Shown here: one piece after another, positions 1,239-20,636 of the stretch
Layout of the letters: the number at the start of each line of letters is the position of its first letter
How positions within the stretch are numbered: the first letter of the stretch is position 1
Source of the DNA: a virus
Direction: 5' to 3' (one strand)
UHGV virus genome: UHGV-0323647
DNA: 21,157 bases
Made by a program: the position numbers and the translations under genes
Notes under the pieces: model-generated
Told to the model about the DNA's origin: nothing
Databases searched by the model: none
The model's input: only the letters and a program-made list of their open reading frames with translations

Positions 1239-1261
1239 AATAACGATTAAGTGAGATGAAT

Positions 1262-1684: not shown

Positions 1685-3096
1685 CCTCGATTAATCCTAT
1701 CTTTGAACCGTTCATTGAGGCGCATCGCTACAAAGTCGCCAAAGGCGGTCGAGGTAGCGGTAAATCATGGGCAATTGCGAGGCTGCTTGTTGAAGCGGCG
1801 CGTCGGCAGCCAGTGCGTATTCTCTGCGCTCGTGAACTGCAAAACAGTATCAGCGATTCGGTAATCCGGCTGCTTGAAGATACTATCGAGCGTGAAGGGT
1901 ATTCGGCTGAGTTTGAAATTCAGCGTTCAATGATTCGCCATCTCGGAACGAACGCTGAATTCATGTTCTACGGCATCAAAAACAACCCAACGAAGATTAA
2001 ATCGCTCGAAGGCATTGATATCTGCTGGGTGGAAGAAGCGGAAGCGGTAACAAAGGAATCGTGGGATATCCTGATACCAACCATCCGCAAGCCGTTTTCC
2101 GAAATATGGGTGAGCTTTAACCCGAAGAACATCCTCGACGATACCTATCAGCGATTCGTTGTAAACCCTCCTGATGATATTTGCCTGCTGACGGTGAACT
2201 ACACCGACAACCCGCACTTTCCTGAAGTTCTCCGTCTGGAGATGGAAGAGTGTAAACGCAGAAATCCGACACTATATCGTCACATCTGGCTTGGTGAGCC
2301 AGTGAGCGCAAGTGACATGGCAATCATCAAACGTGAATGGCTTGAAGCCGCAACCGATGCGCACAAGAAACTCGGATGGAAAGCGAAAGGCGCTGTTGTT
2401 TCTGCGCATGACCCATCAGATACAGGGCCAGATGCTAAAGGTTATGCATCGCGCCACGGTTCGGTTGTTAAGCGCATTGCCGAAGGTCTGCTGATGGATA
2501 TCAACGAGGGTGCTGACTGGGCTACTTCGCTGGCAATTGAAGACGGCGCTGACCATTACCTGTGGGATGGTGATGGCGTCGGTGCGGGCCTACGCAGACA
2601 GACAACGGAAGCGTTCTCCGGCAAGAAAATCACCGCCACGATGTTCAAGGGCAGTGAATCGCCATTCAATGAAGATGCACCGTATCAAGCCGGAGCATGG
2701 GCTGATGAAGTCGTACAGGGTGACAACGTTCGCACTATTGGCGATGTATTCCGCAATAAGCGAGCGCAATTCTATTACGCGCTGGCTGACAGGCTGTATC
2801 TGACATATCGGGCGGTTGTTCACGGTGAGTATGCAGACCCCGACGACATGCTGAGTTTCGACAAAGAAGTGATAGGCGAGAAGATGCTGGAGAAGCTGTT
2901 TGCAGAACTGACGCAGATTCAGCGCAAATTCAATAACAACGGGAAGCTGGAGCTTATGACTAAGGTCGAAATGAAGCAGAAGCTCGGTATTCCATCTCCT
3001 AACCTGGCTGATGCGCTGATGATGTGTATGCATTGCCCGGAGTCGGCTGCGCAACCCGACTATTCCAGTTACTCAATTCCTTGTGGTGTAGGTTGA
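1681..3096 (+). CDS. terL: terminase large subunit (TerL: ATPase plus nuclease)
   Basis: 471 aa. Walker A P-loop KGGRGSGKS near the N-terminus. Size and position immediately after terS and before portal are typical; translationally coupled to terS. Confidence 0.93.
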   Translation: MTSINPIFEPFIEAHRYKVAKGGRGSGKSWAIARLLVEAARRQPVRILCARELQNSISDSVIRLLEDTIEREGYSAEFEIQRSMIRHLGTNAEFMFYGIKNNPTKIKSLEGIDICWVEEAEAVTKESWDILIPTIRKPFSEIWVSFNPKNILDDTYQRFVVNPPDDICLLTVNYTDNPHFPEVLRLEMEECKRRNPTLYRHIWLGEPVSASDMAIIKREWLEAATDAHKKLGWKAKGAVVSAHDPSDTGPDAKGYASRHGSVVKRIAEGLLMDINEGADWATSLAIEDGADHYLWDGDGVGAGLRRQTTEAFSGKKITATMFKGSESPFNEDAPYQAGAWADEVVQGDNVRTIGDVFRNKRAQFYYALADRLYLTYRAVVHGEYADPDDMLSFDKEVIGEKMLEKLFAELTQIQRKFNNNGKLELMTKVEMKQKLGIPSPNLADALMMCMHCPESAAQPDYSSYSIPCGVG

Positions 3097-3097
3097 T

Positions 3098-5296
3098 ATG
3101 GCAGAAAAAAAGATGACTGACTGGCATCGCAAGGTGCTGTGCAACTTTGATAATGCCTGGTCAGCAACGCAGGATATGCGTGAGCAGATTATTGAGGCTC
3201 AACGTTTCGTCAGGGTGTCCGGCGCACAGTGGGAAGGCAGCACAAACGCTGGTTACTCATTTGATGAAGGCAGGTTTGAGCATTATCCGCGTTTTGAACT
3301 GAATAAGATTGCCCGTGAATGTGATCGCATCATTGGCGAGTATCGACAGAATCGCATCAGCGTTAAATTCAGGCCGAAGGACGATAAGGCATCGGAAGCG
3401 TTAGCCGAAAAGATGAACGGCAAATTCCGCGCTGACTATCAGGAAACATCCGGTGGCGAAGCGTGTGATAACGCATTTGATGATGCTGTAACGGGCGGAT
3501 TCGGTTGTTTCCGCATGTGTGCCGATTACGAAGATGAAATGGATCCGAGTAACGAGCAGCGCCGCATCAGCCTTCTTCCTGTTTACGACCCAGCAACATG
3601 CGTCTTCTTCGATCAGGACAGCAAGCAATATGACCGCTCTGATGCTATGTGGGCTATGGAAATGTTCTCCATGACGCCCAAAGCGTTCGAGGCTGAATAC
3701 CCTGATTCCACCGCGGCAAGCCTTTCTCGTGATGACACTGGCACTCAATATGACTGGTCAACGCCCGATGCCATCTATGTTGGACGCTACTACGAAGTTC
3801 GCATAGAGAAGGTGAAGCTCACGGCGTGGCGCAACCCTGTTAGCGGAGAAACGGCAATCTATGATGAAGAGCAAATCAAAGATATTGTCGACGAGCTAAC
3901 CGATGGCTCATTCGAACTGATTGGCGAGCGAACGGTGAAGAAACGCCGAGTTTATTGCGGTCTTCTGTCTGGCGCTGAATGGCTGGAAGAACCGAAGCGT
4001 ATTCCGGGTGAACATATTCCTCTCATCCCGGTATATGGGCGTCGCTCATTTGTTGATAATCAGGAGCGAATCGAAGGCCACGCAGCAAAAGCGATGGATG
4101 CACAGCGTCTTGAGAACCTGATGGTTTCCATGATTGCAGATAACGCTACTCAGGCTGGCGGTGATGGCATTCCTATCGTGGATGTTGATTTCATTCCCGG
4201 TCCATTAATGAATCACTGGGCAGAGAGGAATAAGAAAAGACCTGCAGTTCTTCCCATGACCAGCAAGAAGGACAAAAACGGAACGGTCATTTCAGAGGCT
4301 CAGGTTGCTGGCTGGACACCTCCGACACAAATGCCACCTGCTCTTGCCGGGCTATTGCAGTACACCGGAACGGCTATTCAGCAAATTACAGGTGCGTCGC
4401 AGCTTGAGAACATGCCGAGCAACGTCGCTACCGATACCGTTGATAGCATCTTTAACCGGATGGATACGCAGTCCTATATCTACATGGACAACATGGCTAA
4501 ATCCATGCGTCGCGCTGGCGTTGTGTGGCTTTCTATGGCGCGTGAGGTCTATGGCAGTGATACGCCGATGCGTATCGTTAATGAGGACGGCAGCGATGAC
4601 GTGGCGCTGATGACTGGTGAAGTGGTTGACCGTCAGACAGGGCAGGTTATCGCGCTTAACGACCTTTCGCAGGGCAACTATGAAGTGACTGTCGATGTCG
4701 GTCAGTCGTTCGCTACTCGCCGTGATGCAACTGTTAAGTCGTTACTTTCCATGCTGGCACTTATCCCACCGGGAACGCCGAAGCACGACCTTGTATCGTC
4801 GATGATTCTTGACAATATGGACGGCGAAGGGATGGACGACCTTAAAGAATACAACCGCAATCAGTTGCTTCTGTCTGGAGTTATCAAACCGAGAACGCCA
4901 GAAGAGCAGCAGATGGTTGAGCAGGCGAAACAACAACAGGCCAGTCAGCCAGATCCGGCTATGGTTGCTGCGCAAGGTCAGCTTCTTGCTGGTCAGGCTG
5001 AATTGCAGAAAGCGCAGAACGAGCAGGCAGCCATTCAGGTTAAAGCATTCCAGGCACAGACTGATGCTCAGGTTGCAGCGGCAAACGTTGTGAAAATCCT
5101 CGCATCTGCTGATAGCCAGCAAAAATCTGATATCCGTGAGGCGCTGAAACTGCTCGGACAGTTCCAGCAACAGCAAGGAGATAATGCCCGTGCTGATGCA
5201 GAGCTTGTCCTGAAAAGTCAGGCACAGGGCCATGCGCAGCGCATGGACATCAGCAGCATCCTGCAAAAATCAACTCAGCAACAACCACAGCAGTAA
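3098..5296 (+). CDS. portal protein (P22 gp1-like)
   Basis: 732 aa ORF starting 2 nt after the terL stop. Size matches P22-type portals (about 725 aa). Long Gln/Ala-rich helical C-terminal extension as in the P22 portal barrel. Confidence 0.92.
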   Translation: MAEKKMTDWHRKVLCNFDNAWSATQDMREQIIEAQRFVRVSGAQWEGSTNAGYSFDEGRFEHYPRFELNKIARECDRIIGEYRQNRISVKFRPKDDKASEALAEKMNGKFRADYQETSGGEACDNAFDDAVTGGFGCFRMCADYEDEMDPSNEQRRISLLPVYDPATCVFFDQDSKQYDRSDAMWAMEMFSMTPKAFEAEYPDSTAASLSRDDTGTQYDWSTPDAIYVGRYYEVRIEKVKLTAWRNPVSGETAIYDEEQIKDIVDELTDGSFELIGERTVKKRRVYCGLLSGAEWLEEPKRIPGEHIPLIPVYGRRSFVDNQERIEGHAAKAMDAQRLENLMVSMIADNATQAGGDGIPIVDVDFIPGPLMNHWAERNKKRPAVLPMTSKKDKNGTVISEAQVAGWTPPTQMPPALAGLLQYTGTAIQQITGASQLENMPSNVATDTVDSIFNRMDTQSYIYMDNMAKSMRRAGVVWLSMAREVYGSDTPMRIVNEDGSDDVALMTGEVVDRQTGQVIALNDLSQGNYEVTVDVGQSFATRRDATVKSLLSMLALIPPGTPKHDLVSSMILDNMDGEGMDDLKEYNRNQLLLSGVIKPRTPEEQQMVEQAKQQQASQPDPAMVAAQGQLLAGQAELQKAQNEQAAIQVKAFQAQTDAQVAAANVVKILASADSQQKSDIREALKLLGQFQQQQGDNARADAELVLKSQAQGHAQRMDISSILQKSTQQQPQQ

Positions 5297-5386: not shown

Positions 5387-6280
5387 ATGGACCAGATGGC
5401 AGAAAACACACCAGAAGTTGAAATCGAAACCGACGCGTCAGAGCAGATTCCTGATGATGTCGAACTGGCTGAAGAAGTCGAAACAGAAGATGGCAGTGAG
5501 TCCTCTGGCAATGATGCAGAGGAAGCTACTGAAACTGATGACGACGAATCAGAACAGGAATTCTACTTTGGTGACGAAAAGCTGGATTCGCCAACCAGCG
5601 AAGATAGCGCAGAGCATGGACTGGTAAAACACCTGCGCAAGACGATTAAAGAGAAAGACCGTGAGCTGAAAGAGCTGATGCGTCAGTCTCAGAAACCCGT
5701 CGAGCAGCAGCCGGTAATCACTCAACCACCGCGAATGCCAAAACTGGATGATGAGGACATCGGTTTCGATGAAGAAATCTACCAGCAACGCATGGCTAAG
5801 TGGGCAGAGGATAACGGCAAGTACCAGCAACAGGAGATGGCTCGCAAGCAGAAGGAGCAGGAGCTTCAGGCTGCCTATCAAGAGCGATTATCCAAATATC
5901 AGCAACGTGTTAAGGCTCTCAAAGTTCCTGGCTATCAGGAAGCTGAGCAGGCCGTACTCGAGGAAATCCCCATCGAGACACAAAACGCGATCCTGTTTGA
6001 GTCAGAGAAGCCGGAAATCGTTGTTCTGGCGCTCGGTCGCAACGCTGAACTGCGCAAGCAACTGGCAGAAGCTACCAACCCCGTAGCAATTGGTCGTCTG
6101 CTGGAACGTATCGAATCGAAGGCCAGAATCATGCCAAAAGCAAAAACCACGGCAGCCACAACCCCGACAGTTAAGGGGAGCAACGGCGCAGTAATCAACA
6201 ACCTCGACAAACTGAAAGCCAAGGCGCTGGAAACTGGTGACTGGACGCCGTATTTCGCCGCTAAAAAGGCAAAAAAATAA
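5387..6280 (+). CDS. scaffolding protein (P22 gp8-like)
   Basis: 297 aa, highly acidic N-terminus (many D/E), charged helical middle, basic C-terminal tail (...FAAKKAKK). Sits between portal and coat. Confidence 0.85.
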   Translation: MDQMAENTPEVEIETDASEQIPDDVELAEEVETEDGSESSGNDAEEATETDDDESEQEFYFGDEKLDSPTSEDSAEHGLVKHLRKTIKEKDRELKELMRQSQKPVEQQPVITQPPRMPKLDDEDIGFDEEIYQQRMAKWAEDNGKYQQQEMARKQKEQELQAAYQERLSKYQQRVKALKVPGYQEAEQAVLEEIPIETQNAILFESEKPEIVVLALGRNAELRKQLAEATNPVAIGRLLERIESKARIMPKAKTTAATTPTVKGSNGAVINNLDKLKAKALETGDWTPYFAAKKAKK

Positions 6281-6298
6281 CCTATCGGAGCATTAAGC

Positions 6299-7552
6299 AT
6301 GGCTAACCAATTAGCAAAAGACCTTGAAATCATGTTCGAAAACTACGTTGAAGGCTTTGAGGCCGCCTGCGTAGTTTCCCGTAACGCTAAAAAATTCCGT
6401 CCCGGTGATACTGCAATGCAGCGAGCAGGTGATGTTCTGTATCGTCCGCAGCATTACCACATGAACATTGAAGAAGGCCTCGATCTCAGCAGCAAAACAC
6501 CAACAGCACTGGTTCAGCGCCTTGTTCCTTCTGTGTTCAAGGAGCCGAAAAACATTCTGTACACTCTGGATGCGCGTGAAATGCGTGACCCTGAACATAA
6601 AACTGAAGCTGGTCGCGCCGCAGGTATGCGCCTTGCTGCACAGATTGACTCTGACCTGATTTCCATGGTTACGCAGCGTGCTACTAACGTGATCACGATG
6701 GCTGACTCAACCACAGGTTCACAGGGCCGTGATTTGTGGAACTGTGCGGCAGGTATTGATGCCACTATGACGGCGATTGGTGTACCGCAGGGTATCAACC
6801 GTCGCTCTTTCTGGAACCCCTTCAACTACAAAGACCTTGCTGGCGAGCTTGGTCACCGTGCCTATGCTCAGGGTGCAACCCTGACAGCATACGAAAAAGC
6901 GCAAATCCCTCCGGTTGCGTCCTTCGATAGCTACAAGACCGATATTTCTGGTCGTGTTCCGAAGGGTACAGCAACTTCCATTGCGCTGGCAGCAGCACCT
7001 GCGCACAAGGTTGAAGCGAAAGATGCTAACGATATGCCAGTGGATAACCGACAGGGGACCATTACGGTATCTGCTGAAGGTTTGCAGGTTGGTGATGCGT
7101 TCACCATCGCAGGGGTGAATTCCGTACACCAGATCACCAAAGATACCACCGGGCAGCCGCAGGTATTCCGCGTTCTGGCAGTAAGCGGAACGACAGTAAC
7201 TATCTCCCCGAAAATTCTGCCGCCTGACAACGCGGATGTCGCCAGCCGACCATATGCAAACGTTGATGCTAACGCGGCAAATAGCGCAGCAATCACCATT
7301 CTCAACAAGAACGCAGCACCTGCTAACCTGTTCTGGGCTGATGGTTCTGTTGAGCTGATGTACGGCAAACTGGCGTTCCCGACTGGTCAGGGTCCACAGG
7401 TAATGACAGCAACCACCGAGCAGGGCGCTACGCTGATCATGTCTTACGCCTTCGACCACATCAAAGGCGTAACCACTGCTCGTTTCACCACTCTGTATGG
7501 TTGCTCTGTACTTGTTCCTGAATATACGGGCATCGTTATTGCCGGGCAGTAA
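6299..7552 (+). CDS. major capsid (coat) protein (P22 gp5-like, HK97 fold)
   Basis: 417 aa ORF with GGAG 10 nt upstream of ATG 6299. Position after scaffold and size close to P22/Sf6 coat (about 420-430 aa). Followed by an intrinsic terminator. Confidence 0.9.
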   Translation: MANQLAKDLEIMFENYVEGFEAACVVSRNAKKFRPGDTAMQRAGDVLYRPQHYHMNIEEGLDLSSKTPTALVQRLVPSVFKEPKNILYTLDAREMRDPEHKTEAGRAAGMRLAAQIDSDLISMVTQRATNVITMADSTTGSQGRDLWNCAAGIDATMTAIGVPQGINRRSFWNPFNYKDLAGELGHRAYAQGATLTAYEKAQIPPVASFDSYKTDISGRVPKGTATSIALAAAPAHKVEAKDANDMPVDNRQGTITVSAEGLQVGDAFTIAGVNSVHQITKDTTGQPQVFRVLAVSGTTVTISPKILPPDNADVASRPYANVDANAANSAAITILNKNAAPANLFWADGSVELMYGKLAFPTGQGPQVMTATTEQGATLIMSYAFDHIKGVTTARFTTLYGCSVLVPEYTGIVIAGQ

Positions 7553-7557
7553 TTTTG

Positions 7558-7582
7558 GTGGGGCTTCGGCCCCATTTTTATT
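7558..7582 (+). terminator. rho-independent terminator/attenuator just after the coat gene
   Basis: GGGGC-TTCG-GCCCC hairpin (7560-7573) followed by ATTTTTATT, 8 nt after the coat stop codon. Confidence 0.6.
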
Positions 7583-7593
7583 GGGAGAAGACA

Positions 7594-7782
7594 ATGGCAC
7601 GAACAATGCTCTATAAGCCTGGCAACATGATCACCTGTGGTCAGTTTGCTGTCGATTACATCATTGTTGATGACGAAGAAGTTAAATCTCACCTGAAAAA
7701 AGGTTGGGTAAAAACTCCTGAAGAAACCGCAACGAAGCAAAAAGTGGCTAAGGCGGAAGAAGATGGCGAAAACGAAGGGTGA
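7594..7782 (+). CDS. small hypothetical virion-module protein (62 aa)
   Basis: ATG at 7594 preceded by GGGAGAAG. The ORF-track start at 7555 (no ATG there; first in-frame ATG is 7594) lies inside the terminator hairpin and is unlikely. Acidic C-terminus. Overlaps the next gene by 20 nt. Confidence 0.5.
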   Translation: MARTMLYKPGNMITCGQFAVDYIIVDDEEVKSHLKKGWVKTPEETATKQKVAKAEEDGENEG

Positions 7783-8224
7783 TCTCGTTCTAAAGGCTTT
7801 ACGAAAAGCCGGGCTGTATTCCAATGCCACGTTGACAGATGCTGACCCTCAGGCAATTGAAGATGCTATTAATGACCTCGAAGACATGATGGCAGCATGG
7901 CAGGCGAAAGGTATCGAGCTTGGGTATCAGTTTGCTGATACAGAAAACGGCATCATGCCGTTACCTGACGATGATTCAGGTATCCCTGCATGGGCAAATG
8001 ATGGCGTCGCTTTGAAACTCGCTGTGCAAGTGTGCATGGATAACGTCATTCAGCCATCAGACGCTCTCCTTACCGCTGCTGACAGTGCATATCAAACAAT
8101 CTGTATCGCTTTAACCAAAATACCACCACTTGAGCGGCGAAATGACATGCCTCGCGGTAGTGGTAACAAAAGCGCGTTTACGTGGAATCGGTTTTACATC
8201 GAGAAAGATGATCCGAGTACGTGA
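7763..8224 (+). CDS. head-completion / tail-adaptor protein (P22 gp4-like)
   Basis: 153 aa. N-terminus AKTKGDLVLKALRKAG...TLTD...DLEDMMAAW and C-terminal ...MPRGSGN... resemble P22 gp4 as I recall it. Correct position after coat. Confidence 0.85.
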   Translation: MAKTKGDLVLKALRKAGLYSNATLTDADPQAIEDAINDLEDMMAAWQAKGIELGYQFADTENGIMPLPDDDSGIPAWANDGVALKLAVQVCMDNVIQPSDALLTAADSAYQTICIALTKIPPLERRNDMPRGSGNKSAFTWNRFYIEKDDPST

Positions 8225-8233
8225 GGTGAATAA

Positions 8234-9652
8234 ATGCCGATTCAGCAACTTCCGCTTATGAAAGGCGTCGGCAAAGACTTTCGAAACGCCGACTATATCG
8301 ACTATCTGCCAGTGAATATGTTGGCTACACCAAAAGAAATCCTTAACAGCAGCGGATATCTTCGCTCATTCCCGGGCATTGCCAAACGTTCTGATGTGAA
8401 CGGCGTATCGCGCGGCGTCGAGTACAACATGGCGCAGAGTGCTGTTTATCGCGTGTGTGGTGGGAAGCTCTACAAAGGCGAAAGTGAAGTCGGTGATGTT
8501 GCCGGAAGTGGTCGCGTATCAATGGCGCATGGTCGGACATCTCAGGCTGTAGGCGTTAATGGTCAACTGGTCGAGTATCGCTATGATGGCACGGTTAAAA
8601 CCGTCTCAAACTGGCCTACTGATAGCGGATTCACTCAGTATGAGTTAGGTTCAGTCCGCGACATTACACGCTTACGTGGGCGTTATGCGTGGTCAAAAGA
8701 CGGCACGGATTCATGGTTTATCACTGACCTTGAAGACGAATCGCATCCTGACCGTTACAGCGCACAATATCGCGCAGAATCGCAGCCGGACGGTATCCTC
8801 GGCATCGGAACATGGCGAGACTTCATCGTCTGCTTTGGTTCATCGACGATTGAATATTTTTCCCTGACTGGGGCAACCACCGTTGGTGCCGCTTTGTATG
8901 TCGCACAGCCATCTCTTATGGTGCAGAAAGGCATTGCCGGAACTTACTGCAAAACGCCGTTTGCTGATTCCTATGCGTTTATCAGCAATCCGGCAACAGG
9001 TGCTCCGTCTGTATACATCATCGGCTCCGGTCAGGTATCACCAATCGCCAGCGCGAGCATTGAGAAAATTCTCCGCTCCTACACTGCTGATGAACTGGCT
9101 GATGGCGTGATGGAATCGCTGCGATTTGATGCGCATGAGCTGCTGATTATCCATCTTCCGCGCCATGTTCTCGTGTACGACGCATCTTCAAGCGCCAATG
9201 GTCCGCAATGGTGTGTACTGAAAACAGGCTTGTATGACGATGTGTACCGCGCTATCGACTTCATTTACGAAGGAAATCAGATAACGTGCGGCGATAAGCT
9301 GGAATCGGTGACCGGGAAATTGCAGTTCGATATCAGCAGTCAGTACGACAAGCAGCAGGAACACCTGCTGTTTACTCCGTTGTTCAAAGCGGATAACGCC
9401 AGAGTGTTTGACCTTGAAGTTGAATCTTCAACTGGCGTTGCGCAGTACGCTGACCGCCTGTTCCTCTCTGCAACCACTGACGGCATCAATTACGGTCGTG
9501 AGCAGATGATTGAGCATAATGAACCGTTCGTTTACGACAAACGCGTTTTGTGGAAGCGTGTCGGGCGAATCAGGAAAAATGTTGGCTTCAAATTGCGCGT
9601 TATCACGAAGTCACCTGTCACTCTGTCTGGCTGTCAGATAAGGATTGAGTAA
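8234..9652 (+). CDS. head-completion / tail-hub protein (P22 gp10-like)
   Basis: 472 aa, the same length as P22 gp10. N-terminus [35 protein letters not shown] matches my recollection of gp10. GAGGTG upstream of the ATG. Confidence 0.9.
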
Positions 9653-10500
9653 TGGCGGATTCGAATCTCAATGTGCCGGTAATCATCCAAGCTACGCGGC
9701 TCGATACATCAGTTCTTCCACGCAATATCTTCTCGCAGTCATATCTGCTGTACGTTATCGCACAGGGTACTGATGTTGGTAACGTGGCGAACAAGGCCAA
9801 CGAGGCCGGACAGGGCGCTTATGATGCACAAGCCAGGAACGATGAGCAGGATGTGATTCTGGTCGATCACGAAATTCGACTGGCATCGGCTGAAGCGAAG
9901 ATTCAGGACCACGAAACAAGGATCACTAACGCAGAAGCGGCGATAGTCGGCCTTGATTCACGATTAACGACAGCAGAAAACGATATTGATTACCTGACTG
10001 ATGAAGTTGTCGCCATTCAAAACACGCTTTCCGACCATGAAACGCGCATCGATGCTCTGGAGTATGCCACTACTCGCAAGAAGTCAGAGGTTGTTTACTC
10101 TGGTGTATCTGTAACCATCCCGACAACGCCGACCAACCTTGTTAGCCTGCTGAAAACGCTCACGCCGTCATCCGGCTCGTTGACACCATTCTTCGACACC
10201 GTTAACAACAAGATGGTTGTGTTCAACGAGAACAAAACGCTGTTCTTCAAGCTGTCTATTGTCGGGGCGTGGCCCAGCGGAACCGCCAACAGGTCAATGC
10301 AGCTAACCTTTTCCGGCTCTGTTCCTGACACGTTGGTCAGCAGTCGTAATGCGGCGACAACAACCGACAACATCCTGTTAGCTACGTTCTTCAGCGTGGA
10401 TAAAGACGGCTTTCTTGCCACAAATGGCAGTACGTTAACCATTCAGTCGAATGGTGCGGCTTTTACTGCCACAACCATCAAGATAATCGCGGAGCAGTGA
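9652..10500 (+). CDS. tail needle / cell-envelope-penetrating protein (P22 gp26-like, with C-terminal knob as in Sf6-type needles)
   Basis: 282 aa. N-terminus [43 protein letters not shown] matches the gp26 hub-binding tip. Heptad-like coiled coil with repeated DHETRI. Start overlaps the gp10 stop (TAATG). Confidence 0.85.
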
Positions 10501-10955
10501 TGATTCAGTTCAAACCAACGCGAAACATCGACCTGATAGAAGCCGTGGGAAATCACCCAGACATTATCGCCGGGAGCAACAACGGTGATGGATACGACTA
10601 CAAACCTGATTGCCGTTACTTTGAGGTGAACGTGCACGGGCAGTTCGGCGGCATTGTTTACTATCAGGAGATTCAGCCGCTGACATTCGATTGCCACGCC
10701 ATGTACCTGCCAGAGATTCGCGGCTTCAGCAAGGAAATCGGGCTGGCGTTCTGGAGATACATTCTGACTAACACCACCGTTCAGTGCGTCACATCGTTCG
10801 CTGCACGCAAATTCCGCCACGGGCAGATTTACTGCGCAATGATTGGCCTTAAGCGTGTAGGAACCATCAAGAAATACTTCAAAGGCGTGGATGACGTGAC
10901 GTTTTACAGCGCCACACGCGAAGAACTAATCGACTTCCTGAATCACGGGAGATAG
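10500..10955 (+). CDS. gp14-like virion/ejection-associated protein
   Basis: ATG at 10500 overlapping the gp26 stop (TGATG), with GGAG 5 nt upstream. The ORF-track start at 10497 is a GTG. Position corresponds to P22 gene 14. Confidence 0.75.
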   Translation: MIQFKPTRNIDLIEAVGNHPDIIAGSNNGDGYDYKPDCRYFEVNVHGQFGGIVYYQEIQPLTFDCHAMYLPEIRGFSKEIGLAFWRYILTNTTVQCVTSFAARKFRHGQIYCAMIGLKRVGTIKKYFKGVDDVTFYSATREELIDFLNHGR

Positions 10956-10957
10956 CC

Positions 10958-11650
10958 ATGTTATATGCATTTAAACTGGGCAGAAAACTGCGCGGTGAGG
11001 AACCTTATTGCCCTGAAAAAGGCGGGAAAGGTGGCAGTTCTGATAAAAGCGCAAAGTATGCAGCAGAAGCTCAGAAGTATGCCGCAGACCTGCAAAATCA
11101 GCAGTGGCAGACGATCATGAAAAACCTTGCTCCGTTCACGCCTCTTGCGGAGCAGTATGTTAACCAGCTTCAGAACCTTTCCAGTCTAGAAGGTCAGGGG
11201 CAGGCACTTAATCAGTATTACAACTCTCAGCAGTATAAAGACCTTGCAGGTCAGGCTCGTTACCAGAGTCTTGCTGCTGCGGAGGCGACGGGTGGACTTG
11301 GTTCGACAGCCACAAGCAATCAACTGGCTACGATCGCGCCGACACTAGGTCAGTCTTGGTTATCAAATCAGATGAGCAATTACAACAATCTGGCAAACGT
11401 TGGGCTTGGTGCGCTGCAAGGTCAGGCAAACGCCGGGCAGACGTACGCCAACAACATGAGCAGCATTGCACAGCAAAGCGCAGCTCTTGCCGCTGCTAAT
11501 GCCAATAAACCATCAAGTCTTCAGACTGCAATTAGCGGTGGCACGTCTGGTGCGATTGCCGGTGCAGGTCTTGCCAGCCTTTTGGGAACATCAACACCTT
11601 GGGGCGCTGGAATTGGTGCTGGTATCGGATTGCTTGGCTCGTTGTTTTAA
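10958..11650 (+). CDS. ejection (internal virion) protein, gp7-like
   Basis: 230 aa. N-terminus MLYAFKLGRKLRGEEPYCPEKGGKGGSSDKSAKYAAEAQKY and Gly/Ala-rich hydrophobic C-terminus (...GAGIGAGIGLLGSLF) match P22 gp7 as I recall it. Confidence 0.75.
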   Translation: MLYAFKLGRKLRGEEPYCPEKGGKGGSSDKSAKYAAEAQKYAADLQNQQWQTIMKNLAPFTPLAEQYVNQLQNLSSLEGQGQALNQYYNSQQYKDLAGQARYQSLAAAEATGGLGSTATSNQLATIAPTLGQSWLSNQMSNYNNLANVGLGALQGQANAGQTYANNMSSIAQQSAALAAANANKPSSLQTAISGGTSGAIAGAGLASLLGTSTPWGAGIGAGIGLLGSLF

Positions 11651-11659
11651 GGGGTAATC

Positions 11660-12967
11660 ATGGCTACTTGGCAAGGAACAAACGGCGGATTGTTGGCTGG
11701 TATCGGCGGCGTCAACTCAAACGCTCCGAGCGTAAATGACATCGGCAATACGCTTCAGCTTATCAGGCAGAACAATGATATTGAGCGTTCAGGCGCTAAC
11801 AATGTTGGGCTGACTGCTTTGCAAGGTCTTCAGCAGGAAAAGCAGGCTCAGCGGCAGAAAGAATTTCAGCAGGCGTACGCTAATGCTTATGCGTCTGGTG
11901 ATCGCGGTGCTTTGCGTCAGTTGGCTACTCAATATCCAGACCAGATTGAATCCGTTCGTAAAGGCATGGGATTCATTGATGAAGATCAGCGTAATTCTAT
12001 CGGCACCTTAGCGGCTGGCGCACGCCTTGCGTCATCGTCTCCAGAAGCAATGCAATCATGGCTGCAAAACAACGCCAAGGAACTGACTCGCGTCGGTGTT
12101 GACCCTAATAACGTTGCTCAGATGTATCAGCAGAATCCTTCAGGATTTGGTGAGTTTGTTGATCACCTTGGAATGGCTGCGCTTGGTCCGATTGATTACT
12201 TCAATGTTCAGGATAAGATGGCAGATCGCCAGCTGACCATGCGCGGTCAGGATCTGAACTCGCAAACCGCCGCCCGGAATCAGGCAATCACAATGCGTGG
12301 GCAAGATATCCAGGCAAATTTAGGTCAGCAGCGCATTAATCTGGACGCAGAAACAAACCGCATTAACTACGAAAATAAGCGCCTTGACCGGATGCTATCA
12401 GCAGAAACTAACGACCTGAAGCGCCAGGAAATACAGAGCCGCATAGCAGCCAACAACCAGAAGTTGCAGCAGAAGCAGCAAGAGCTAAATGATGGCTACA
12501 AAGACGGCATCAACACTCTCACAACCAGCATGTTCACTCTGAACGATATCGTTAATTCTCCTGCACTTAAGAGCATTACAGGCTTACGTGGAGCAATCCC
12601 CAACGTTCCAGGCTCACAAGCTGCAGACACTCAGGCGCGACTTGATACCTTTAAATCCCAAGCATACCTGACAGCGGTTCAGGCCATGAAAGGACTTGGT
12701 GCACTTTCTGATGCCGAGGGCAAAAAGCTCGACCAGGCTGTTGGTTCGCTGCAGAACTCGCAGAGCGAGGAGTCCTTTCGTCGCAACGCTGGCGTCATCC
12801 TGAACACGCTCAACCAGAAGCGTAATGAGGCGGTTGGTAAGTACGTTCAGCAAAACGGTATCAAGCGAGTGGAAGCGCCTCAGGCTTCTATAGATTACCT
12901 GAAGCAGCACCCCGAGCTGTCAATCGACTTCATTAATCGCTACGGATATCTTCCATCTTTGGGGTAG
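11660..12967 (+). CDS. ejection (internal virion) protein, gp20-like
   Basis: 435 aa, Gln/Asn-rich low-complexity helical protein, second of three consecutive ejection-protein genes. GGGG upstream of the ATG. Confidence 0.7.
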   Translation: MATWQGTNGGLLAGIGGVNSNAPSVNDIGNTLQLIRQNNDIERSGANNVGLTALQGLQQEKQAQRQKEFQQAYANAYASGDRGALRQLATQYPDQIESVRKGMGFIDEDQRNSIGTLAAGARLASSSPEAMQSWLQNNAKELTRVGVDPNNVAQMYQQNPSGFGEFVDHLGMAALGPIDYFNVQDKMADRQLTMRGQDLNSQTAARNQAITMRGQDIQANLGQQRINLDAETNRINYENKRLDRMLSAETNDLKRQEIQSRIAANNQKLQQKQQELNDGYKDGINTLTTSMFTLNDIVNSPALKSITGLRGAIPNVPGSQAADTQARLDTFKSQAYLTAVQAMKGLGALSDAEGKKLDQAVGSLQNSQSEESFRRNAGVILNTLNQKRNEAVGKYVQQNGIKRVEAPQASIDYLKQHPELSIDFINRYGYLPSLG

Positions 12968-12970
12968 TAA

Positions 12971-15601
12971 ATGGCTAATTACCGTGATTTGTTAGAGCAG
13001 GCTGGCGCACGTTACGGTGTGCCAGAAGGGTTGATGACTGCACTGGGTGCCAAGGAGTCTTCTTACAACCCTGCAGCAGTAAGCTCCTCCGGGGCTGTAG
13101 GATTGACTCAGGTCATGCCTGGGACATGGCGTGATATGGGTTATACCGATGAGCAAATGCAAAACCCCGAATATCAGGCTGACGCTGGCGCGCGCTATCT
13201 GGCAAAGATGTACCAGCAGTTTGGTAACTGGCGTGACGCTCTTCAGGCTTATCACGACGGTCCCGGCAACGTTATGAAGGCAAAGCGTGGTGAATATACG
13301 CCAGGACCTGAAGGCCGCGGTTACGTTGATGATCGCTTTGCTCAATGGGCGGGTGACCCGGTGACAGACTCAACAGTCGAACAGCGCGCCACCTCTGCAA
13401 AGGTACATCCTCAGCAAGACCCTAACAACCCGTTTGCACAACTGGAAGTACAGTCATCCGAACAAGTATCGGCATCAGGTGTGCAGTCAGACCCAAATAA
13501 TCCATTTGCTCAGATTGAGCAGCAGGCAGCCAGTCAGCAGCCACCTCAACCCGTAAGTTCTGTCGCACCGAAACCTGTTCAGCAACAAACAGTTAATCAG
13601 GCCAATAATGAACCAGCACGTGAAGAACCATCATTGATGCAACAAGCTGGCGATTGGCTCACAGGTGGTCAAAGTGCAGGGCAAATTGCAGAGCAGGCTG
13701 GTCGTGGTCTGGTAAACATACCATTTGACGTATTGCAGGGTGGCGCAAGTCTGATTAATGCAATCAGCCAGGGGCTTGGTGGCCCCAAGGTTTTGGATGA
13801 TGTTTATCGTCCAGTAGATCGACCGACAGACCCCTACGCGCAAGCCGGTGAAACAATTGGCGGGTATCTCCTGCCAATTGGTACAGCGGCAAAAGCTGCT
13901 GGAGCGCCAGCAAAGCTCGCTGGAGATATCGGTTCCGCAGGAAACATGATTGCAGGTTCTCTTGCTGATGCTGCAAATCAGGAGGGCGACTTTGCACAAA
14001 ATGCTGCCATTAACGGTGGTATCAATATTGGTGCTCAAGGCGTTCTTTCAGGTGTCGGGCGCGTTATTGCGCCAAGGGTTTCACATGCTCTTGGTGGTGC
14101 AGCACTGAATTCTGCTAATGATGTTTCCAGGATGGCAAAGTCAGGTGCTGGGCGTCAGTCAATTGCCAGTCAGGCCGCTAATGTGTCCGAAGGTGTAGCA
14201 AAAGCGGCTGAGTCTGCTGGAATTGATATAAACGCATTAACACCAGGAATGCGATCTGGAAGTCGTGGAATTGCACAAGCCGAAGGCGCATTGGCATCAA
14301 CACCAGGAATTGTTCAGGACGCCCATCAGACAGCATTTAACGAAATATCATCAAAGTTAAGTCGAAACCTTGATGAATTTGGGGCCGCATCTGGAACGGC
14401 ATCAGAAAAAAGTGCGGCTATAAAACAAAGGATTCTTCAAAATCTTGATCAGATGAAGGATGCCGAGCGCGCGGCATGGGATGACGTGCGGTCAACAATG
14501 CCAAATCAAAAAGCAAGAATGCTAAATGGTAATGCCGTTATTCAGGCAGAGCGATCTGCTGGCATACCGCTTACTCCTGAAATGAAACAGTTTGTTCAGG
14601 CAAACAATCAAGGTGGAGTAACATTTGATGGCATGAAAGCATGGAGAGCGAAATTTGCTGATGCGGAGCAAAAATATAAGCGTAGCGGAGAGGCAAATGC
14701 GGCAAGGAGAGCAGGGGAAATACGCCGGGCAATTACTGATGATATGCGCACAATGGCGGAAAACGGCGGATTTCTTGATGACTGGCAGAAAGCTAATGAT
14801 CTGTCTAAAGCGAGGTTATCAGCACAAGAGAGTGCAGAGTCTGTTTTCGGGCGTGATTTGGCAACAGATGCACTGATTACGAATGGAGTAAAATCCCTTC
14901 AATCATCGTCAGCTAAAGGTCTTAATGGTCCTGCTGGGTTCCATTCTATGATCCGCGCGCTGCCAGAATCAGAGCGTGTTCCTGCTATATCATCAATGTT
15001 GCAAGATGCTATCTCGCATGGTGTACGTGGTGGCAAAGCTGATGCAGCAGGAATTAACCATATCGCAGGGATACTTACCCCACAAAATGTAAAAGCCATT
15101 AGCAGATATTCCTCAGATCTCGGAAGAATTGCTGATGCATATGGCACTCTTGCAAGAGCAGCAGTGAAACCTCAGCAGTATATTGAAAGAACAGGGAGAA
15201 CTGCCAATGTACTACGCGATCTGGATGCTGGTTTATCCAACGTCACATCAACAGTGTTAAATGCAATTGCCAACTCAACATCAGGTGCCATTGTTGGTGG
15301 AGCAGGAGGGGGCATTGCAGGCGCTGCCGCAGGTGCTTTAGTTGGCGCCGGGTTAAAAGGTGCTGTATCTAAAATTGCCACCACACGTAGTGGTCGGTAT
15401 GCGATAGAGAAAGCAGTTCAGGAAGCAACTAAAGCAGTAAGAGCAGGCGGAAGTAAAGAAGCATTAGCGGCGGCGGAACGCAGATTTATGGCAAATAAAG
15501 CTGCCGTAAAAGCGATACGTGATACAGTCGGAAACGAAGAGTTCAATCGCTTAGCGAGGGCTGGCATTGTAGCGTCGCTAAGCGGAATAGCACAGGAGTA
15601 A
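12971..15601 (+). CDS. ejection (internal virion) protein, gp16-position, with N-terminal lytic-transglycosylase (SLT)-like domain
   Basis: 876 aa. The N-terminal roughly 110 aa carry SLT-family motifs (GAKESSYNP with candidate catalytic Glu, [18 protein letters not shown]). The remainder is Ala/Gly/Gln-rich with a hydrophobic Gly-rich segment ([22 protein letters not shown]). Confidence 0.8.
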
Positions 15602-15925
15602 TTAATCATCCATGGATGGATTGAGCTTATCTCGTGTTGATGTGGCGATTTGTCCTACATTTCTAAGCCAAGATTTCAAATCCTTGATATTGTCATTGAT
15701 TTCATGAATATCTTCTTTTTTTAATCTTTTAACATTATTTTCAATAATTTCAATGGATTGCTCAATATCAGATATAGTGAATGATAGTTTGTTCTTCTCA
15801 TCTTTTATTGAGTTTTTAAGTGCTTCGTTCTCAGTCTTGAGGTCAGATATCTTTTGTTTTAAAGATGCCAGTTGGTACTGAACCACAATGAGTGCGATAG
15901 CTATCACGATAACTGTTGTATACAC
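15602..15925 (-). CDS. small membrane-anchored coiled-coil protein (107 aa), unknown function; candidate exclusion/abortive-infection factor
   Basis: GTG start at 15925 preceded on the - strand by AAGGAGG (complement of 15931-15937) with a 5-nt spacer. N-terminal hydrophobic helix YTTVIVIAIALIVVQY, then a K/E-rich helical region. AT-rich. Stop codon directly abuts the gp16-like stop (convergent, zero spacer). Confidence 0.65.
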   Translation of the reverse strand: MYTTVIVIAIALIVVQYQLASLKQKISDLKTENEALKNSIKDEKNKLSFTISDIEQSIEIIENNVKRLKKEDIHEINDNIKDLKSWLRNVGQIATSTRDKLNPSMDD

Positions 15926-16245: not shown

Positions 16246-16299
16246 GCAACTTGACACAGTTGTATACATAGCTGCGGCTATCAAGATGGAGGTATGTTT

Positions 16300-16743
16300 A
16301 TGCTCACTTGTTTTGATGTCGCCGACTACTTCTTGGCGCATTGCGATGAAGAAAGTGGCGACATTATCTCTAACCTAAAAATTCAGAAGTTGACGTATTA
16401 TGCCCAAGGGTTTTCTCTGGTTCTTCTGGGTAAGCCGCTATTTAATGAGAAAATTGAAGCCTGGATGCATGGGCCAGTAGTTCCTGAATTGTATCGTAAA
16501 TATAGGGACTGTGGTAACGGAGCTTTACCTGCGCCAGAAAACTTTGACGCTAAAAAATTCAGTGAAGATGAAATTGAATTGCTGGATGAGGTGTATAAAG
16601 TTTATGGTCAGTTTTCTGCCTGGAAACTGCGCAATATGACTCACGAAGAGCAGCCATGGAAAGATGCTTACATTGAGGGTGCGGTTAGCCAAGAAATCAC
16701 ACTTGATTCTATGAAAGGTTTTTTCAAAACGTTAATTAACTGA
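16300..16743 (+). CDS. Panacea-domain (DUF4065, SocA/GepA-like) protein; putative antitoxin/immunity component
   Basis: Segment NLKIQKLTYYAQGFSLVLLGKPLFNEKIEAWMHGPVVPELYRKY matches the conserved core I associate with DUF4065/Panacea proteins. GGAGG at 16288-16292 sits 7 nt before ATG 16300; the ORF-track ATG 16294 is only 1 nt after the SD. Confidence 0.7.
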   Translation: MLTCFDVADYFLAHCDEESGDIISNLKIQKLTYYAQGFSLVLLGKPLFNEKIEAWMHGPVVPELYRKYRDCGNGALPAPENFDAKKFSEDEIELLDEVYKVYGQFSAWKLRNMTHEEQPWKDAYIEGAVSQEITLDSMKGFFKTLIN

Positions 16744-16748
16744 CGTGT

Positions 16749-17171
16749 ATGTCTAGAGTTAAGGGAAGAATAAAACAGAGGGATAAAGAGAGCTCTGCTA
16801 CTGTTGGCCTCTCTATCCATCACGAATCTCATGATGTAGACAAAAGTCCGCCTGTATTTTCTCTTAGATACCTACAAAAGGGGTATTGCCTAGATTGCTG
16901 CCAAAAGCATGAAAAGGCAGCATTTGCAGATAGGCTGTTCAGGTTAAGTCAGATGTCATGGGATGAGATACGAAAATCTGATAAACACGGGCTTGGGACG
17001 GAAAAAATTGCCAGAAACGCGATAAAGGCTCCGATTCCTAAGCATGTTACTCAAGATGTGGATTTCATTGCGTTCAGATTTTGCTCTAAGGCACCTATGG
17101 TTGGTTATAAGATAGGAGCCACTTTTTATGTCTTATGGCTCGACAGGGAGTTCAAGCTATACAAGCACTAA
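16749..17171 (+). CDS. hypothetical protein (140 aa) co-operonic with the Panacea-like gene; candidate toxin/effector partner
   Basis: ATG 5 nt after the upstream stop with no SD of its own, suggesting translational coupling. No recognised domain. Basic N-terminus, CLDCC cysteine cluster, C-terminal strand ...GATFYVLWLDREFKLYKH. Followed immediately by an intrinsic terminator. Confidence 0.6.
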   Translation: MSRVKGRIKQRDKESSATVGLSIHHESHDVDKSPPVFSLRYLQKGYCLDCCQKHEKAAFADRLFRLSQMSWDEIRKSDKHGLGTEKIARNAIKAPIPKHVTQDVDFIAFRFCSKAPMVGYKIGATFYVLWLDREFKLYKH

Positions 17172-17696: not shown

Positions 17697-19475
17697 ATGA
17701 CAGATTCAATAAATGCCAATGTTGTAGTTAGCATGCCTTCGCAACTCTTCACTATGGCGCGTTCTTTTAAAGCCGTAGCCAATGGCAAAATTTATATCGG
17801 TCAGGTTGACACTGACCCGGTAAATCCAGAAAACCAGATTCAGGTTTATGTGGAGAGCGAAGACGGTTCTCACGTTCCTGTTTCTCAACCAATCATCATT
17901 AACGCTGCTGGTTACCCTGTATATAACAGACAGATTGCCAAGTTCGTAACTGTACAGAATCACTCCATGGCTGTGTATGATGCGTATGGTGCACAACAAT
18001 TCTATTATCCTGATCTACTGAAATATTCTCCAGACCAGTTAAGGGCTGAGCTTTCTGGCCCTGATGGCGCATCTCTGGTTGGTTATGGAGATGAAACTGT
18101 CAAAGATGCTCTTGACAATAATGCCCATAAAATAGACACATTGAGGAGTGACTTGGCTGCTGATGATGGCTTTCGCCACATAGGCAACTTTCTCAATTTA
18201 GAGGCGCTGAGGGATTCAATGCCATTAGTTGCTGGAGAAATTGTTTATGTAGCTTCAGCAGCAAGTGCTACAGCAACTGAAAAACATTATGGTGGTGGGT
18301 ATTTCCAGTCTTTCGACAATAGCACATCACAGATTGCCGATGATGGAGGGATTGTTATTGTTCCATCAACTGGAACGTTGGCGTGGCGTCGCATTAATTT
18401 CACGGCCTACGATATGCAGTTTTGGGGGGTTAAGCCTGATGGTGCGACGGATAACGCGGAAGCCATTACGAAGGCGACGCAGTATGCAAAAGATAATCAT
18501 GTTGAACTTGTATTCCCTGCTGGTAATGTAAAGTCCTCACAAGCATTTCCTTTTTACTCCAGAATGTCAGTAAGGGGAGCCGGCAGAGAAAGCTCATTTT
18601 TCAGTAAAACAACAAATAACAAGTTTACCATTACATCAGAGGTGGAAGTAGACGCGCTCATTGTATTCATTCCTGATGTTTATGACCCAAGTGGCGTAAC
18701 TATTGATACATTTTGCTTTAAACCAAAACTTGAGGGCATTACTTTCCAGAGAGATGATTTGACTTCAGATAACATGTGTTACTACAGCGTGTGGGCAGAA
18801 AAATTAGCTGCTCCAATCATGAGGGATTTAAATTTTATAGGGCATTATATCGGAATGTATGGTAAAAACTGGTTTTTATTTGAGGCAACATCTGTTCAGT
18901 TTTTAGGAGTGAACGGTAGAACTTTCCAAGGCATAAGTTGCTTAAATTTGAGTGGGCCAACATACTTCCTTTCAGGAACAAGCCTTAACTGGAATCTTGT
19001 AAGTGTTGTAAACGCACAAAATGCCTACGAAATTTCAGGGCAGCAGTATAGTCATCTTAATAACTGTACAGCAGAAGGAATTAAACCAATGCCAGGAGAG
19101 ACACTTGCCACTGCATTCCGTTTTAAGAATCCTACATCAATAACTTTAACCTCATGCGGAACTGAAAATGTTCAGGGAGAACAATTCAGGATAGAGATGG
19201 CGCCCACACCATCATTTAAAGGTTCGGTTGTAATCAATAACTTTCAAGTTGTGGATCAGGTCAATCCATCCACGCCAACTAAATTTTTTGTTATTGATTC
19301 TGCTAATGTTGGTACATTATCCGTATCATTAATTGGTGGTGAATTAACAAGAAACACTACGCTATCAAACCTACAACAACCAACCGTATCAGGCACAAAC
19401 TGTGTGTTAAATAATGTTGGGTGCTGGGTTGAGTCACCTTCTGTTTCTGGAGGCGCTGTCTACAAGACGCTTTAG
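17697..19475 (+). CDS. tailspike protein: P22-type head-binding N-domain fused to a divergent beta-helix-like receptor-binding/depolymerase body
   Basis: 592 aa. N-terminal roughly 110 aa ([59 protein letters not shown]...) match the P22 gp9 head-binding domain as I recall it. Downstream the sequence turns AT-rich and carries motifs typical of pectate-lyase-like tailspikes ([23 protein letters not shown]). Confidence 0.9.
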
Positions 19476-19476
19476 A

Positions 19477-19506
19477 ATGAGAGGCGGGTAGCCGCCTCAT
19501 TTTTTG
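19477..19506. terminator. bidirectional intrinsic terminator shared by convergent tailspike and acyltransferase genes
   Basis: AATGAGAGGCGG-GTA-GCCGCCTCATT hairpin followed by TTTTT on the + strand. The minus-strand acyltransferase stop codon lies inside the stem. Confidence 0.7.
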
Positions 19507-20636
19507 ATGAATCTGTACTCTACATACTTAAACGTGTATGCAGTGACAATTGTTGTAATAGATACAAGAGATAGTATAAGCGTCCAAAATCCAACGGCAG
19601 ATATATTATTTAAATTGAATATAAAGCCAATAAATTTTATAACCAATGCGTTAATTATTAGGTGAAGAAGATAAGAGCTATAACTAGCCTCGCCAAGATA
19701 GACAAGAGGTTTAAATGTGAAAACGGAAGGCTTTGTCATTACAATTACATTAAATAGGAGAGTGGTTATTAAAAACCTTTCCCATCCATATCCGCTAAAC
19801 ATCGTGTAAAGTAAGTAAATAATAGTTAATGCTGAAGCAGCGGAAAAGAAATTGTTTGTTATCTTATTGCTACTTAACATTACAGATACCATTTTCATCC
19901 TATTGAAAAGAATGGCAGACAAAGCTCCAGATATAAAATAAACCCAAACAACCTGCCCAGAATACAAGTCATTTGCTGCATATCCAACTGAGAGCACAGA
20001 ACCGATAACTGCAATTGATTTGAATCTAATAGCTGCACATATCACTGGAAGCATGCAATAGAATTTCCATTCATATGGAAGTGTCCATATCACCGCGTTT
20101 AATGAGTAAGTCCTGAATCCATTCACCCATATATCACTTCCGAAAAATCCAAAGCCAAATAGATTTATTGCCTGCCTTGCTGTTGTAGTTAAATCCTGAC
20201 CACCATGCGACCACATCAATGTAAGAACTAGAACTATAGTTGATGCTATCATGTACATAGGAACAAGGCGTTTAACTCGAGATACGAAAAACATCTCCCA
20301 GTTAATTTTATTGCCTGTTTTTATGATCTTATCAAAGAATAAAAAACCTGTTATACAAAAGAAAATTTGCACACCAACATCACCAGCATGAGCGAAAACC
20401 CAGAAGTTAGATGTGTTAACTGATAATGGATTAAATCCATTATTTGACAGAGAAAATACAGCATGGTTTAAAACAACAAGAAGAGCCGCTATACCTCGAA
20501 TGCCATCAATATGAAGATAACGCTTCCCTGAGAAATCAATATGATTGTAAAAGTTAAAGCATACAAAGACTCTGTTTATTCCCATTGATGCCGCAAGACA
20601 TAACAAGGCAATCCCAATATTAAATAAAGTTTCCAT
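19497..20636 (-). CDS. oac: integral-membrane Acyltransferase-3 family protein; likely O-antigen O-acetyltransferase (serotype-conversion gene)
   Basis: 379 aa, many hydrophobic segments. N-terminal signature RYLHIDGIRGIAALLVVLNHAVF typical of Acyltransferase-3 proteins. Strongly AT-rich. Located between tailspike and integrase, where Sf6 carries oac. The symbol is by analogy, not proven orthology. Confidence 0.8.
   Translation of the reverse strand: METLFNIGIALLCLAASMGINRVFVCFNFYNHIDFSGKRYLHIDGIRGIAALLVVLNHAVFSLSNNGFNPLSVNTSNFWVFAHAGDVGVQIFFCITGFLFFDKIIKTGNKINWEMFFVSRVKRLVPMYMIASTIVLVLTLMWSHGGQDLTTTARQAINLFGFGFFGSDIWVNGFRTYSLNAVIWTLPYEWKFYCMLPVICAAIRFKSIAVIGSVLSVGYAANDLYSGQVVWVYFISGALSAILFNRMKMVSVMLSSNKITNNFFSAASALTIIYLLYTMFSGYGWERFLITTLLFNVIVMTKPSVFTFKPLVYLGEASYSSYLLHLIINALVIKFIGFIFNLNNISAVGFWTLILSLVSITTIVTAYTFKYVEYRFIKK

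Follow-up and report, generated by a model that had tools for sequence, protein, structure and literature searches.

How the channel through which P22-like phages deliver their DNA passes the peptidoglycan is unexplained in current structural models, and we know of no wall-cutting activity in any of the P22 proteins gp7, gp16, and gp20. A gene in the UHGV virus genome UHGV-0323647 raises the question of whether some of these phages carry a murein-cleaving enzyme on the channel itself. The stretch of DNA analyzed here (21,157 nucleotides, nt; hereafter, the window) represents one half, that for virion assembly, of a P22-like phage or prophage, as assigned from Pfam matches of its open reading frames (ORFs). 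The gene in question is the third of its gp7-gp20-gp16 cluster, with the gp14 gene on one side and the tailspike region on the other according to the Pfam assignments of its neighbors. From the sequence alone, the original prediction had described its product as an 876-amino-acid (aa) third ejection protein with SLT-type motifs in the first ~110 residues, and both the ORF and all three of the motifs it quoted are present (i.e., GAKESSYNP at aa 26-34, a second motif at aa 44-53, and AYHDGPGN at aa 93-100 of the translation). We consider it probable that this protein is a P22-type gp16 with an ejected, tethered family-1 lytic transglycosylase, opening the wall for the gp20/gp16 channel.

A search of the N terminus with the Pfam SLT profile PF01464, which the original prediction had proposed, matched aa 7-110 (E=2.2e-25; 89 bits versus a gathering cut-off of 21.3), a match far beyond chance, and P22 gp16, included as a negative control, gave no SLT match. 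When the protein was compared with PDB sequences by means of phmmer, Slt70 was the top match (E=1.4e-10), with E29 of the query placed on the catalytic E478 and AYHDGPG on AYNAGPG; T7 gp16 was also recovered (E=5.9e-4). Consistently, an AlphaFold2 (AF2) model of aa 1-135, for which a 76-sequence alignment was supplied, displayed a goose-lysozyme-like all-helical fold (pLDDT 88.8, pTM 0.83) with helices continuing to aa 127. The domain was therefore found at the N terminus, as predicted, and its modeled fold reaches ~aa 127, slightly past the aa 120 given in the original prediction. A single-sequence AF2 model of aa 1-250 was poor (pLDDT 57). Foldseek searches with the aa 1-135 model returned Slt70, Slt (P. 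aeruginosa), LtgA, and MltC/D/E/F with a probability of 1.00, and TMq values ranged from 0.69 to 0.82 across these proteins and the N-terminal part of T7 gp16 (i.e., 0.79 for Slt70, and 0.75 [9JYY] and 0.69 [7K5C] for T7 gp16). A search with the 206-aa N terminus returned only partial proteins and distant small transglycosylases, with no full-length fusions among them, and no free-standing donor of the SLT module above 54% identity was found in that search.

We assessed conservation of the putative active site in an alignment of the window domain with 75 diverse homologues (76 sequences). The predicted catalytic Glu29, together with Ser30, is invariant in 76/76 homologues and in 14/14 distinct phage variants. 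More specifically, all 11 invariant columns of the alignment (E29, S30, G41, A42, G44, L45, Q47, A74, R75, Y94, and G97) are kept in the window, with the G-L-x-Q motif II present as G44-L45-T46-Q47. His95 in motif III occurs in only 2/76 homologues, yet all phage variants have it, as does a distant P22-like homologue (P0245), and the 14 distinct versions of aa 1-125 all have the same residues at E29, S30, Y94, H95, D96, and G97. At other near-invariant positions of the nearest subfamily, the window copy departs as well, so that the full set of such changes is N95H, A96D, A53W, and GEYTPGPEG for GG[VI]PP[YF]xET. Relative to divergent copies, dN/dS was 0.02-0.07 (Nei-Gojobori method; dS from 0.3 to saturation), and the sequence comparisons indicate that the SLT module is old and under strong purifying selection. 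A metagenomic P22-like phage (L063), whose gp7 is 35% identical to that of the window, carries an SLT-bearing 1033-aa protein at the gp16 position, in which AYHDGPGN and a further stretch of the window sequence are kept.

The rest of the protein was predicted to resemble P22 gp16, and our comparisons bear this out. The core is 97.9% identical to epsilon34 gp13 aa 31-708 (from aa 199), 98.3% identical to CUS-3 gp16 aa 60-719 (from aa 217), and 32.7% identical to P22 gp16 over 667 aa (from aa 196; E=1.5e-67). Likewise, the phrog_770 family ('DNA transfer protein') spans aa 108-835 (E=8e-232), and close homologues bear precomputed PF26808 matches; NCBIfam holds no model spanning the whole protein. 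Outside the SLT domain, the protein is rich in Ala, Gly, Ser, and Gln. By Kyte-Doolittle analysis, the 876-aa protein has no N-terminal hydrophobic signal sequence, and its sole strongly hydrophobic stretch, a candidate membrane-inserting element at aa 771-797, lies near the C terminus. This distribution of hydrophobicity fits delivery in the virion rather than Sec export.

The SLT domain is absent from P22 gp16, epsilon34 gp13, and CUS-3 gp16, all three of which have the core and the gene order in common with the window. Where the window has a ~200-aa module of SLT domain and linker, proteins of the P22/epsilon34 type have a 33-aa peptide (MKVTANGKTF...) and CUS-3 gp16 has a 59-aa peptide (MAKAWKDV...), and all of these versions rejoin at a short Q-rich stretch before a shared conserved segment. 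Megablast breakpoints fall just 3' of the linker, at nt 605 (epsilon34), 618 (IME10/phiKp_30), and 652 (CUS-3) of the gene, corresponding to window nt 13575-13622. As judged by these alignments, the 876-aa protein is a P22-type gp16 in which a short N-terminal peptide has been swapped for the SLT+linker module. An 862-aa protein without SLT domain (P0075) was considered as a fourth N-terminal cassette and rejected, because the gp20 family phrog_917 accounts for its first 170 aa; it is either an in-frame gp20-C::gp16 fusion or a miscalled gene.

The linker region is rare, being found in 5 of 1.84 billion representative proteins. It contains two copies of DPNNPFAQ[LI]E, and the paired DPxNPFAQxE motifs, together with a segment containing QRAT..AK.H, do not vary among seven variants whose identity to the window copy across this stretch is just 50-77%. 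The distant homologue P0245 has NMFAEF twice in place of DPxNPFAQxE. These repeats look like a short linear interaction motif.

The original prediction left in doubt whether such a fusion is standard in Sf6-type phages. It is not: P22, epsilon34, and CUS-3 lack the SLT domain by direct comparison, and HK620, with which comparison had likewise been proposed, matches the gene only from ~nt 650-700, as do SEN22 and Louie. The five phages epsilon34, CUS-3, Louie, SEN22, and HK620 thus have the core without the module. A full-length nucleotide match was obtained only in phages Dewey and Huey (97.6% identity), the proteins of which are 98% identical over their full length, and only the 5' module is common to Sf101, APC_JM3.2, IME10, phiKp_30, and a 2.7-kb record, ECO26.1 3-1. 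The SLT+linker module itself is 98-100% identical in Sf101, IME10, phiKp_30, APC_JM3.2, Dewey, Huey, and E. coli prophages. Complete E. coli genomes carried it in 70 of 5426 cases, all chromosomal and all named 'lytic transglycosylase domain-containing protein' by PGAP; since the core was matched in 618 of these genomes and the N-terminal half of gp20 in 800, the module accounts for ~9-11% of P22-like cassettes in E. coli. In IMG/VR, 51 loci bear the module, the encoded proteins being of 797 aa in 27 loci, of 911 aa (the Sf101 type) in 5, and of 875, 790, 815, 886, 922, 791, or 836 aa or truncated in classes of 1-4 loci each. According to tblastn, the cores behind the module in SLT-bearing loci are often mutually unrelated. 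The pairing seen in the window, in which an epsilon34/CUS-3-type core follows the module, is rare (2 of the top 120 protein clusters; 1/51 IMG/VR loci). A one-genome-per-species scan, which is little informative on host range, gave just two module-bearing representatives, those of E. coli and Shigella flexneri, in addition to an unrelated Acidobacteria transglycosylase. This distribution identifies the SLT fusion, at the level of sequence, as a recurrent, reassorting minority module rather than a standard component of Sf6/P22-type phages.

Databases already label the domain automatically, through the PGAP name, the designation of the Sf101 protein as 'transglycosylase' in GenBank, and the family phrog_21143. 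The last of these, named 'lytic tail fiber protein', is 576 positions long and apparently built on a truncated form, so that its name is misleading. Two Sf101-type SLT-gp16 genes encoding 576 aa were observed at nt 6001-7731 of loci L009 and L010 (E. coli ECMA0423 and S. flexneri SFBU1023, respectively), both following Sf101 gp16 to aa 573 before the frame shifts into unrelated sequence. According to a recent review, P22-like phages lack such a domain, none being described for Sf6 or P22 gp16, although its sample comprised P22, Sf6, HK620, and CUS-3 only (PMC8954989). The Sf101 paper does not mention a transglycosylase fusion, and we found no discussion of an SLT fusion in P22-like phages or Lederbergvirus in the literature searched, which excluded the likeliest places, Casjens & Thuman-Commike 2011 and Casjens & Grose 2016.

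What the domain would do can be considered within the P22 model, in which the channel through the outer membrane is formed by gp7, gp16 follows gp7 into the periplasm ahead of gp20, and the gp20 barrel spans the peptidoglycan down to a plinth on the cytoplasmic membrane, the site at which gp16 completes the channel (preprint 10.64898/2026.09.03.749273). With this order of ejection, the gp16 N terminus would reach the periplasm in time for an SLT domain there to enlarge the murein mesh. In the window protein, the SLT domain lies at the extreme N terminus, tethered by a predicted flexible linker of ~90 residues to the membrane-targeting core. In the mechanism that we infer, as regards packaging, ejection, enzymatic activity, timing, and conditional requirement alike, the protein would be packaged in the virion and, after gp7 has opened the outer membrane, would be expelled unfolded through portal and tail and refold in the periplasm. 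There, with Glu29 as the putative catalytic acid, the SLT domain would cleave glycan strands locally, allowing gp16 to reach the cytoplasmic membrane and the gp20 tube to pass the peptidoglycan. By analogy with T7 gp16, whose E37 mutants show a conditional delay, such activity may matter mainly when the wall is highly cross-linked (e.g., at low temperature or in stationary phase).

Several observations weigh against this proposal. The ejection mechanism can dispense with the domain, given that the closely related phages epsilon34 and CUS-3, with cores 98% identical to that of the window, lack it. P22 gp4 is listed as a virion-associated lysin (PMC5380687, Table 2), and a gp4 homologue is present in the window too. 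As for the active site, the Asn of the AYNAG motif is replaced by His in the window copy, motif II carries Q47G in three IMG/VR variants (L054, L055, and L056) that keep Glu29, and P0245 has E-T for E-S while retaining the catalytic Glu. These substitutions may mean that catalysis is altered, or that it is dispensable in some lineages; in L054-L056, Q47G may reflect altered or lost activity in that lineage.

As a rival reading, the SLT domain may have been kept as a peptidoglycan-binding anchor or spacer that docks gp16/gp20 to the sacculus and does not cut it, an alternative to which the departures of the window copy from its closest subfamily, Q47G, and the E-T of P0245 lend some weight. However, all 14 phage variants and P0245 have the catalytic Glu, and the window copy retains E-S, G-L-x-Q, and Y94/G97; the low dN/dS fits either reading and does not favor active-site decay. 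We regard a non-cutting anchor as unlikely. That the domain acts late, aiding lysis or assembly from inside the cell, is far less probable still: nothing specific speaks for it beyond the occurrence of SLT domains in some endolysins (phrog_669 and phrog_10475 matches), whereas the domain is fused to an ejection protein in a virion-assembly operon, has neither a signal sequence nor a holin-linked context, and belongs to an architecture whose characterized precedents all act at entry (PMC8954989, PMC5380687). An artefactual fusion, created by a sequencing or frameshift error that merged two genes, is refuted by the uninterrupted ORF in Dewey, Huey, Sf101, IME10, phiKp_30, 70 E. coli chromosomes, and 51 IMG/VR loci, and by the 33- or 59-aa peptide that SLT-less variants have at the same place in the same ORF. 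The SLT domain occurs as part of a single ORF in >50 loci, with cores of different types.

The remaining alternative concerns the neighboring gene: the SLT module and the C-terminal half of gp20 (about nt 12365-12964) are inherited together. In IMG/VR, window-type gp20 lies directly upstream in every SLT-bearing locus examined, and its identity (60-93%) falls in step with that of the SLT domain (81-99%), whereas the gp16 core varies freely. Similarly, 71 E. coli genomes contain a 1289-nt block composed of gp20-C and SLT, which is continuous over its full length in 66 of them. The N-terminal half of the window gp20 is 41-42% identical to those of P22 and epsilon34, but its C-terminal half is not shared with either; these two phages have one gp20-C type and one gp16 N-peptide between them, while CUS-3 has a different gp20-C and a different N-peptide. 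Each type of gp16 N-module, including that of the SLT group, is accordingly paired with its own gp20-C type. For P22, a contact is predicted between gp16 residues 1-205 and the periplasmic C-terminal plinth of gp20 (preprint 10.64898/2026.09.03.749273), making a functional gp20-gp16 interface a live possibility. From this pairing, the predicted contact, and the invariance of the two DPxNPFAQxE motifs, it might be argued that the block of gp20-C and gp16 N-terminal linker is a docking interface that alone matters, the SLT domain being a passenger kept by linkage. Yet co-inheritance could be explained by adjacency alone, because recombination falls in conserved flanks, and the strong purifying selection on the SLT domain is unlike that expected of a passenger. 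We find a mere passenger improbable, slightly more so than an anchor, and a docking interface is in any case compatible with a tethered, wall-opening transglycosylase. A bolder combination, which we put forward tentatively and rate as doubtful, is that the gp16 N-terminal cassette and the gp20 C-terminal half form one co-evolving docking unit across the gene boundary. The DPxNPFAQxE motifs would then clamp gp16 onto the plinth, playing the part that the 'molecular tape' plays in T7 gp16; this would hold the transglycosylase where the tube crosses the wall, and the cassette type would set gp20 compatibility.

A sizeable minority of P22-like phages place a predicted T7-style enzyme on gp16, which corrects the generalization that these phages lack one. 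The near-isogenic sets available, namely Dewey/Huey with the SLT domain versus Louie/CUS-3/epsilon34 without it, have cores that are 97-98% identical, so that what a virion-borne transglycosylase contributes to the entry of podoviruses can be tested directly. In addition, the tight co-inheritance with one gp20-C type provides a genetic handle on the gp20-gp16 interface, which is only modeled in the latest in situ cryo-EM work.

The coordinates of the SLT-gp16 gene, its parts, and its neighbors are compiled in Table 1. The cassette follows the P22 gene order (i.e., gp4, gp10, needle, gp14, gp7, gp20, gp16, and tailspike). At nt 12965-12973, the TAG that ends gp20 is followed by TAA and then by the gp16 ATG, and this tight packing of the two genes is consistent with translational coupling; the gp20 proteins of Dewey and Sf101 are one residue longer at the end (...SLGQ). 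Directly after gp16 lies an hkcB-like 107-aa coiled-coil ORF (nt 15602-15925, minus strand), as is also the case in epsilon34, CUS-3, and HK620. The moron slot between gp16 and the tailspike gene, in which P22 has sieA/immI, is occupied by two ORFs (nt 16294-17171, plus strand), one with a SocA/Panacea antitoxin domain (PF13274, E=2e-24), followed 5 nt on by a 140-aa ORF that belongs to phrog_8366 and has a weak PADLOC NsnC match (E=2e-7). The two ORFs may represent a Panacea-type toxin-antitoxin or defense pair. Just downstream of the tailspike gene and convergent with it, nt 19497-20636 (minus strand) encode a 379-aa Acyl_transf_3/phrog_3333 O-acetyltransferase, probably an O-antigen-modifying (serotype-converting) gene.

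Table 1. Positions of the SLT-gp16 gene, its predicted parts, and the other virion-assembly genes in the window.
Feature	Position (nt)	Strand	Basis
Gene for the ejection ('DNA transfer') protein at the gp16 position (876 aa; SLT domain at the N terminus)	12971..15601	+	ORF list, translation, phrog_770, Pfam SLT
Lytic transglycosylase (SLT, family 1/GH23-type) domain, aa 1-127	12971..13351	+	PF01464, AF2, Foldseek, dN/dS
GAG-TCT codons, Glu29-Ser30, predicted catalytic acid and E-S motif (end of second helix)	13055..13060	+	Alignment with Slt70 E478 and T7 gp16 E37
Motif II region, aa 41-52	13091..13126	+	G41, A42, G44, L45, and Q47 invariant in 76 homologues
Motif III variant AYHDG, aa 93-97, where AYNAG is usual	13247..13261	+	Y94 and G97 invariant
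Linker, predicted disordered, Q/P-rich, ending at mosaic junction 'VQQQ'	13352..13564	+	Low pLDDT in single-sequence model, alignments
Linker repeat 1, aa 150-159	13418..13447	+	Motif scan
Linker repeat 2, aa 174-183	13490..13519	+	Motif scan
P22 gp16-type core, aa 199-876, epsilon34/CUS-3 subtype	13565..15598	+	Identity to epsilon34/CUS-3/P22
Sole strongly hydrophobic, glycine-zipper-like segment, aa 771-797	15281..15361	+	Kyte-Doolittle peak 1.2-1.6 centered on aa 781-794
Sf6-type small terminase	1256-1684		Pfam
Large terminase	1681-3096		Pfam
P22 portal	3098-5296		Pfam
Coat protein	6299-7552		Pfam
gp4 tail adaptor homologue	7763..8224	+	PF11650, E=7e-41
gp10	8234-9652		Pfam
Tail needle with Sf6-type knob	9652-10500		Pfam
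gp14	10497-10955		Pfam
gp7 homologue, first ejection protein	10958..11650	+	PF25688, E=1.8e-134
gp20 homologue, 435 aa	11660..12967	+	PF16928, E=3.5e-58
Tailspike with P22 head-binding domain	17697-19475		Pfam

Among known lytic transglycosylases, the family-1 enzymes Slt70 and MltC/D/E/F of E. coli are the best matches to the window domain in both sequence and structure, with the catalytic Glu and the motifs aligned. These enzymes are Sec-exported or lipoproteins and have accessory domains, whereas the phage domain has no signal peptide and forms part of an ejection protein. Compared with T7, both Slt70 and small metagenomic transglycosylases (up to 54% identity) are nearer to the window SLT domain. 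Nonetheless, the original prediction had proposed an arrangement parallel to that of T7 gp16, and the comparison agrees with it: in T7 gp16 (PDB 7K5C, 7EYB), an SLT domain of the same fold is likewise located at the extreme N terminus of the third and largest ejection protein. BLASTP aligned the two proteins over 130 aa (28% identity, E=1e-10) with residue 2 of the window protein on residue 10 of T7 gp16, so that E29 corresponds to E37, and the T7 gp16-type internal core protein family phrog_342 was matched at the N terminus (E=4.6e-24). Behind the SLT domain, both proteins continue with an extended segment and a membrane-targeting remainder, of ~680 aa in the window protein versus ~1160 aa in T7 gp16. 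That the linker might be homologous to the 'molecular tape' of T7 gp16 was considered and rejected, as the phrog_342 score is flat past aa 120 and no BLASTP similarity was found. Similarly, BLASTP detected no similarity of the core to the remainder of T7 gp16 (best E=0.21). The transglycosylase of T7 gp16 has been proposed to enlarge the murein mesh and to be needed only when the wall is highly cross-linked (PMC8954989). On these comparisons of sequence, the window protein is not a member of the T7 gp16 family and is T7-like only at its N terminus; as the cores are unrelated, the two arrangements are fittingly described as parallel and not as orthologous.

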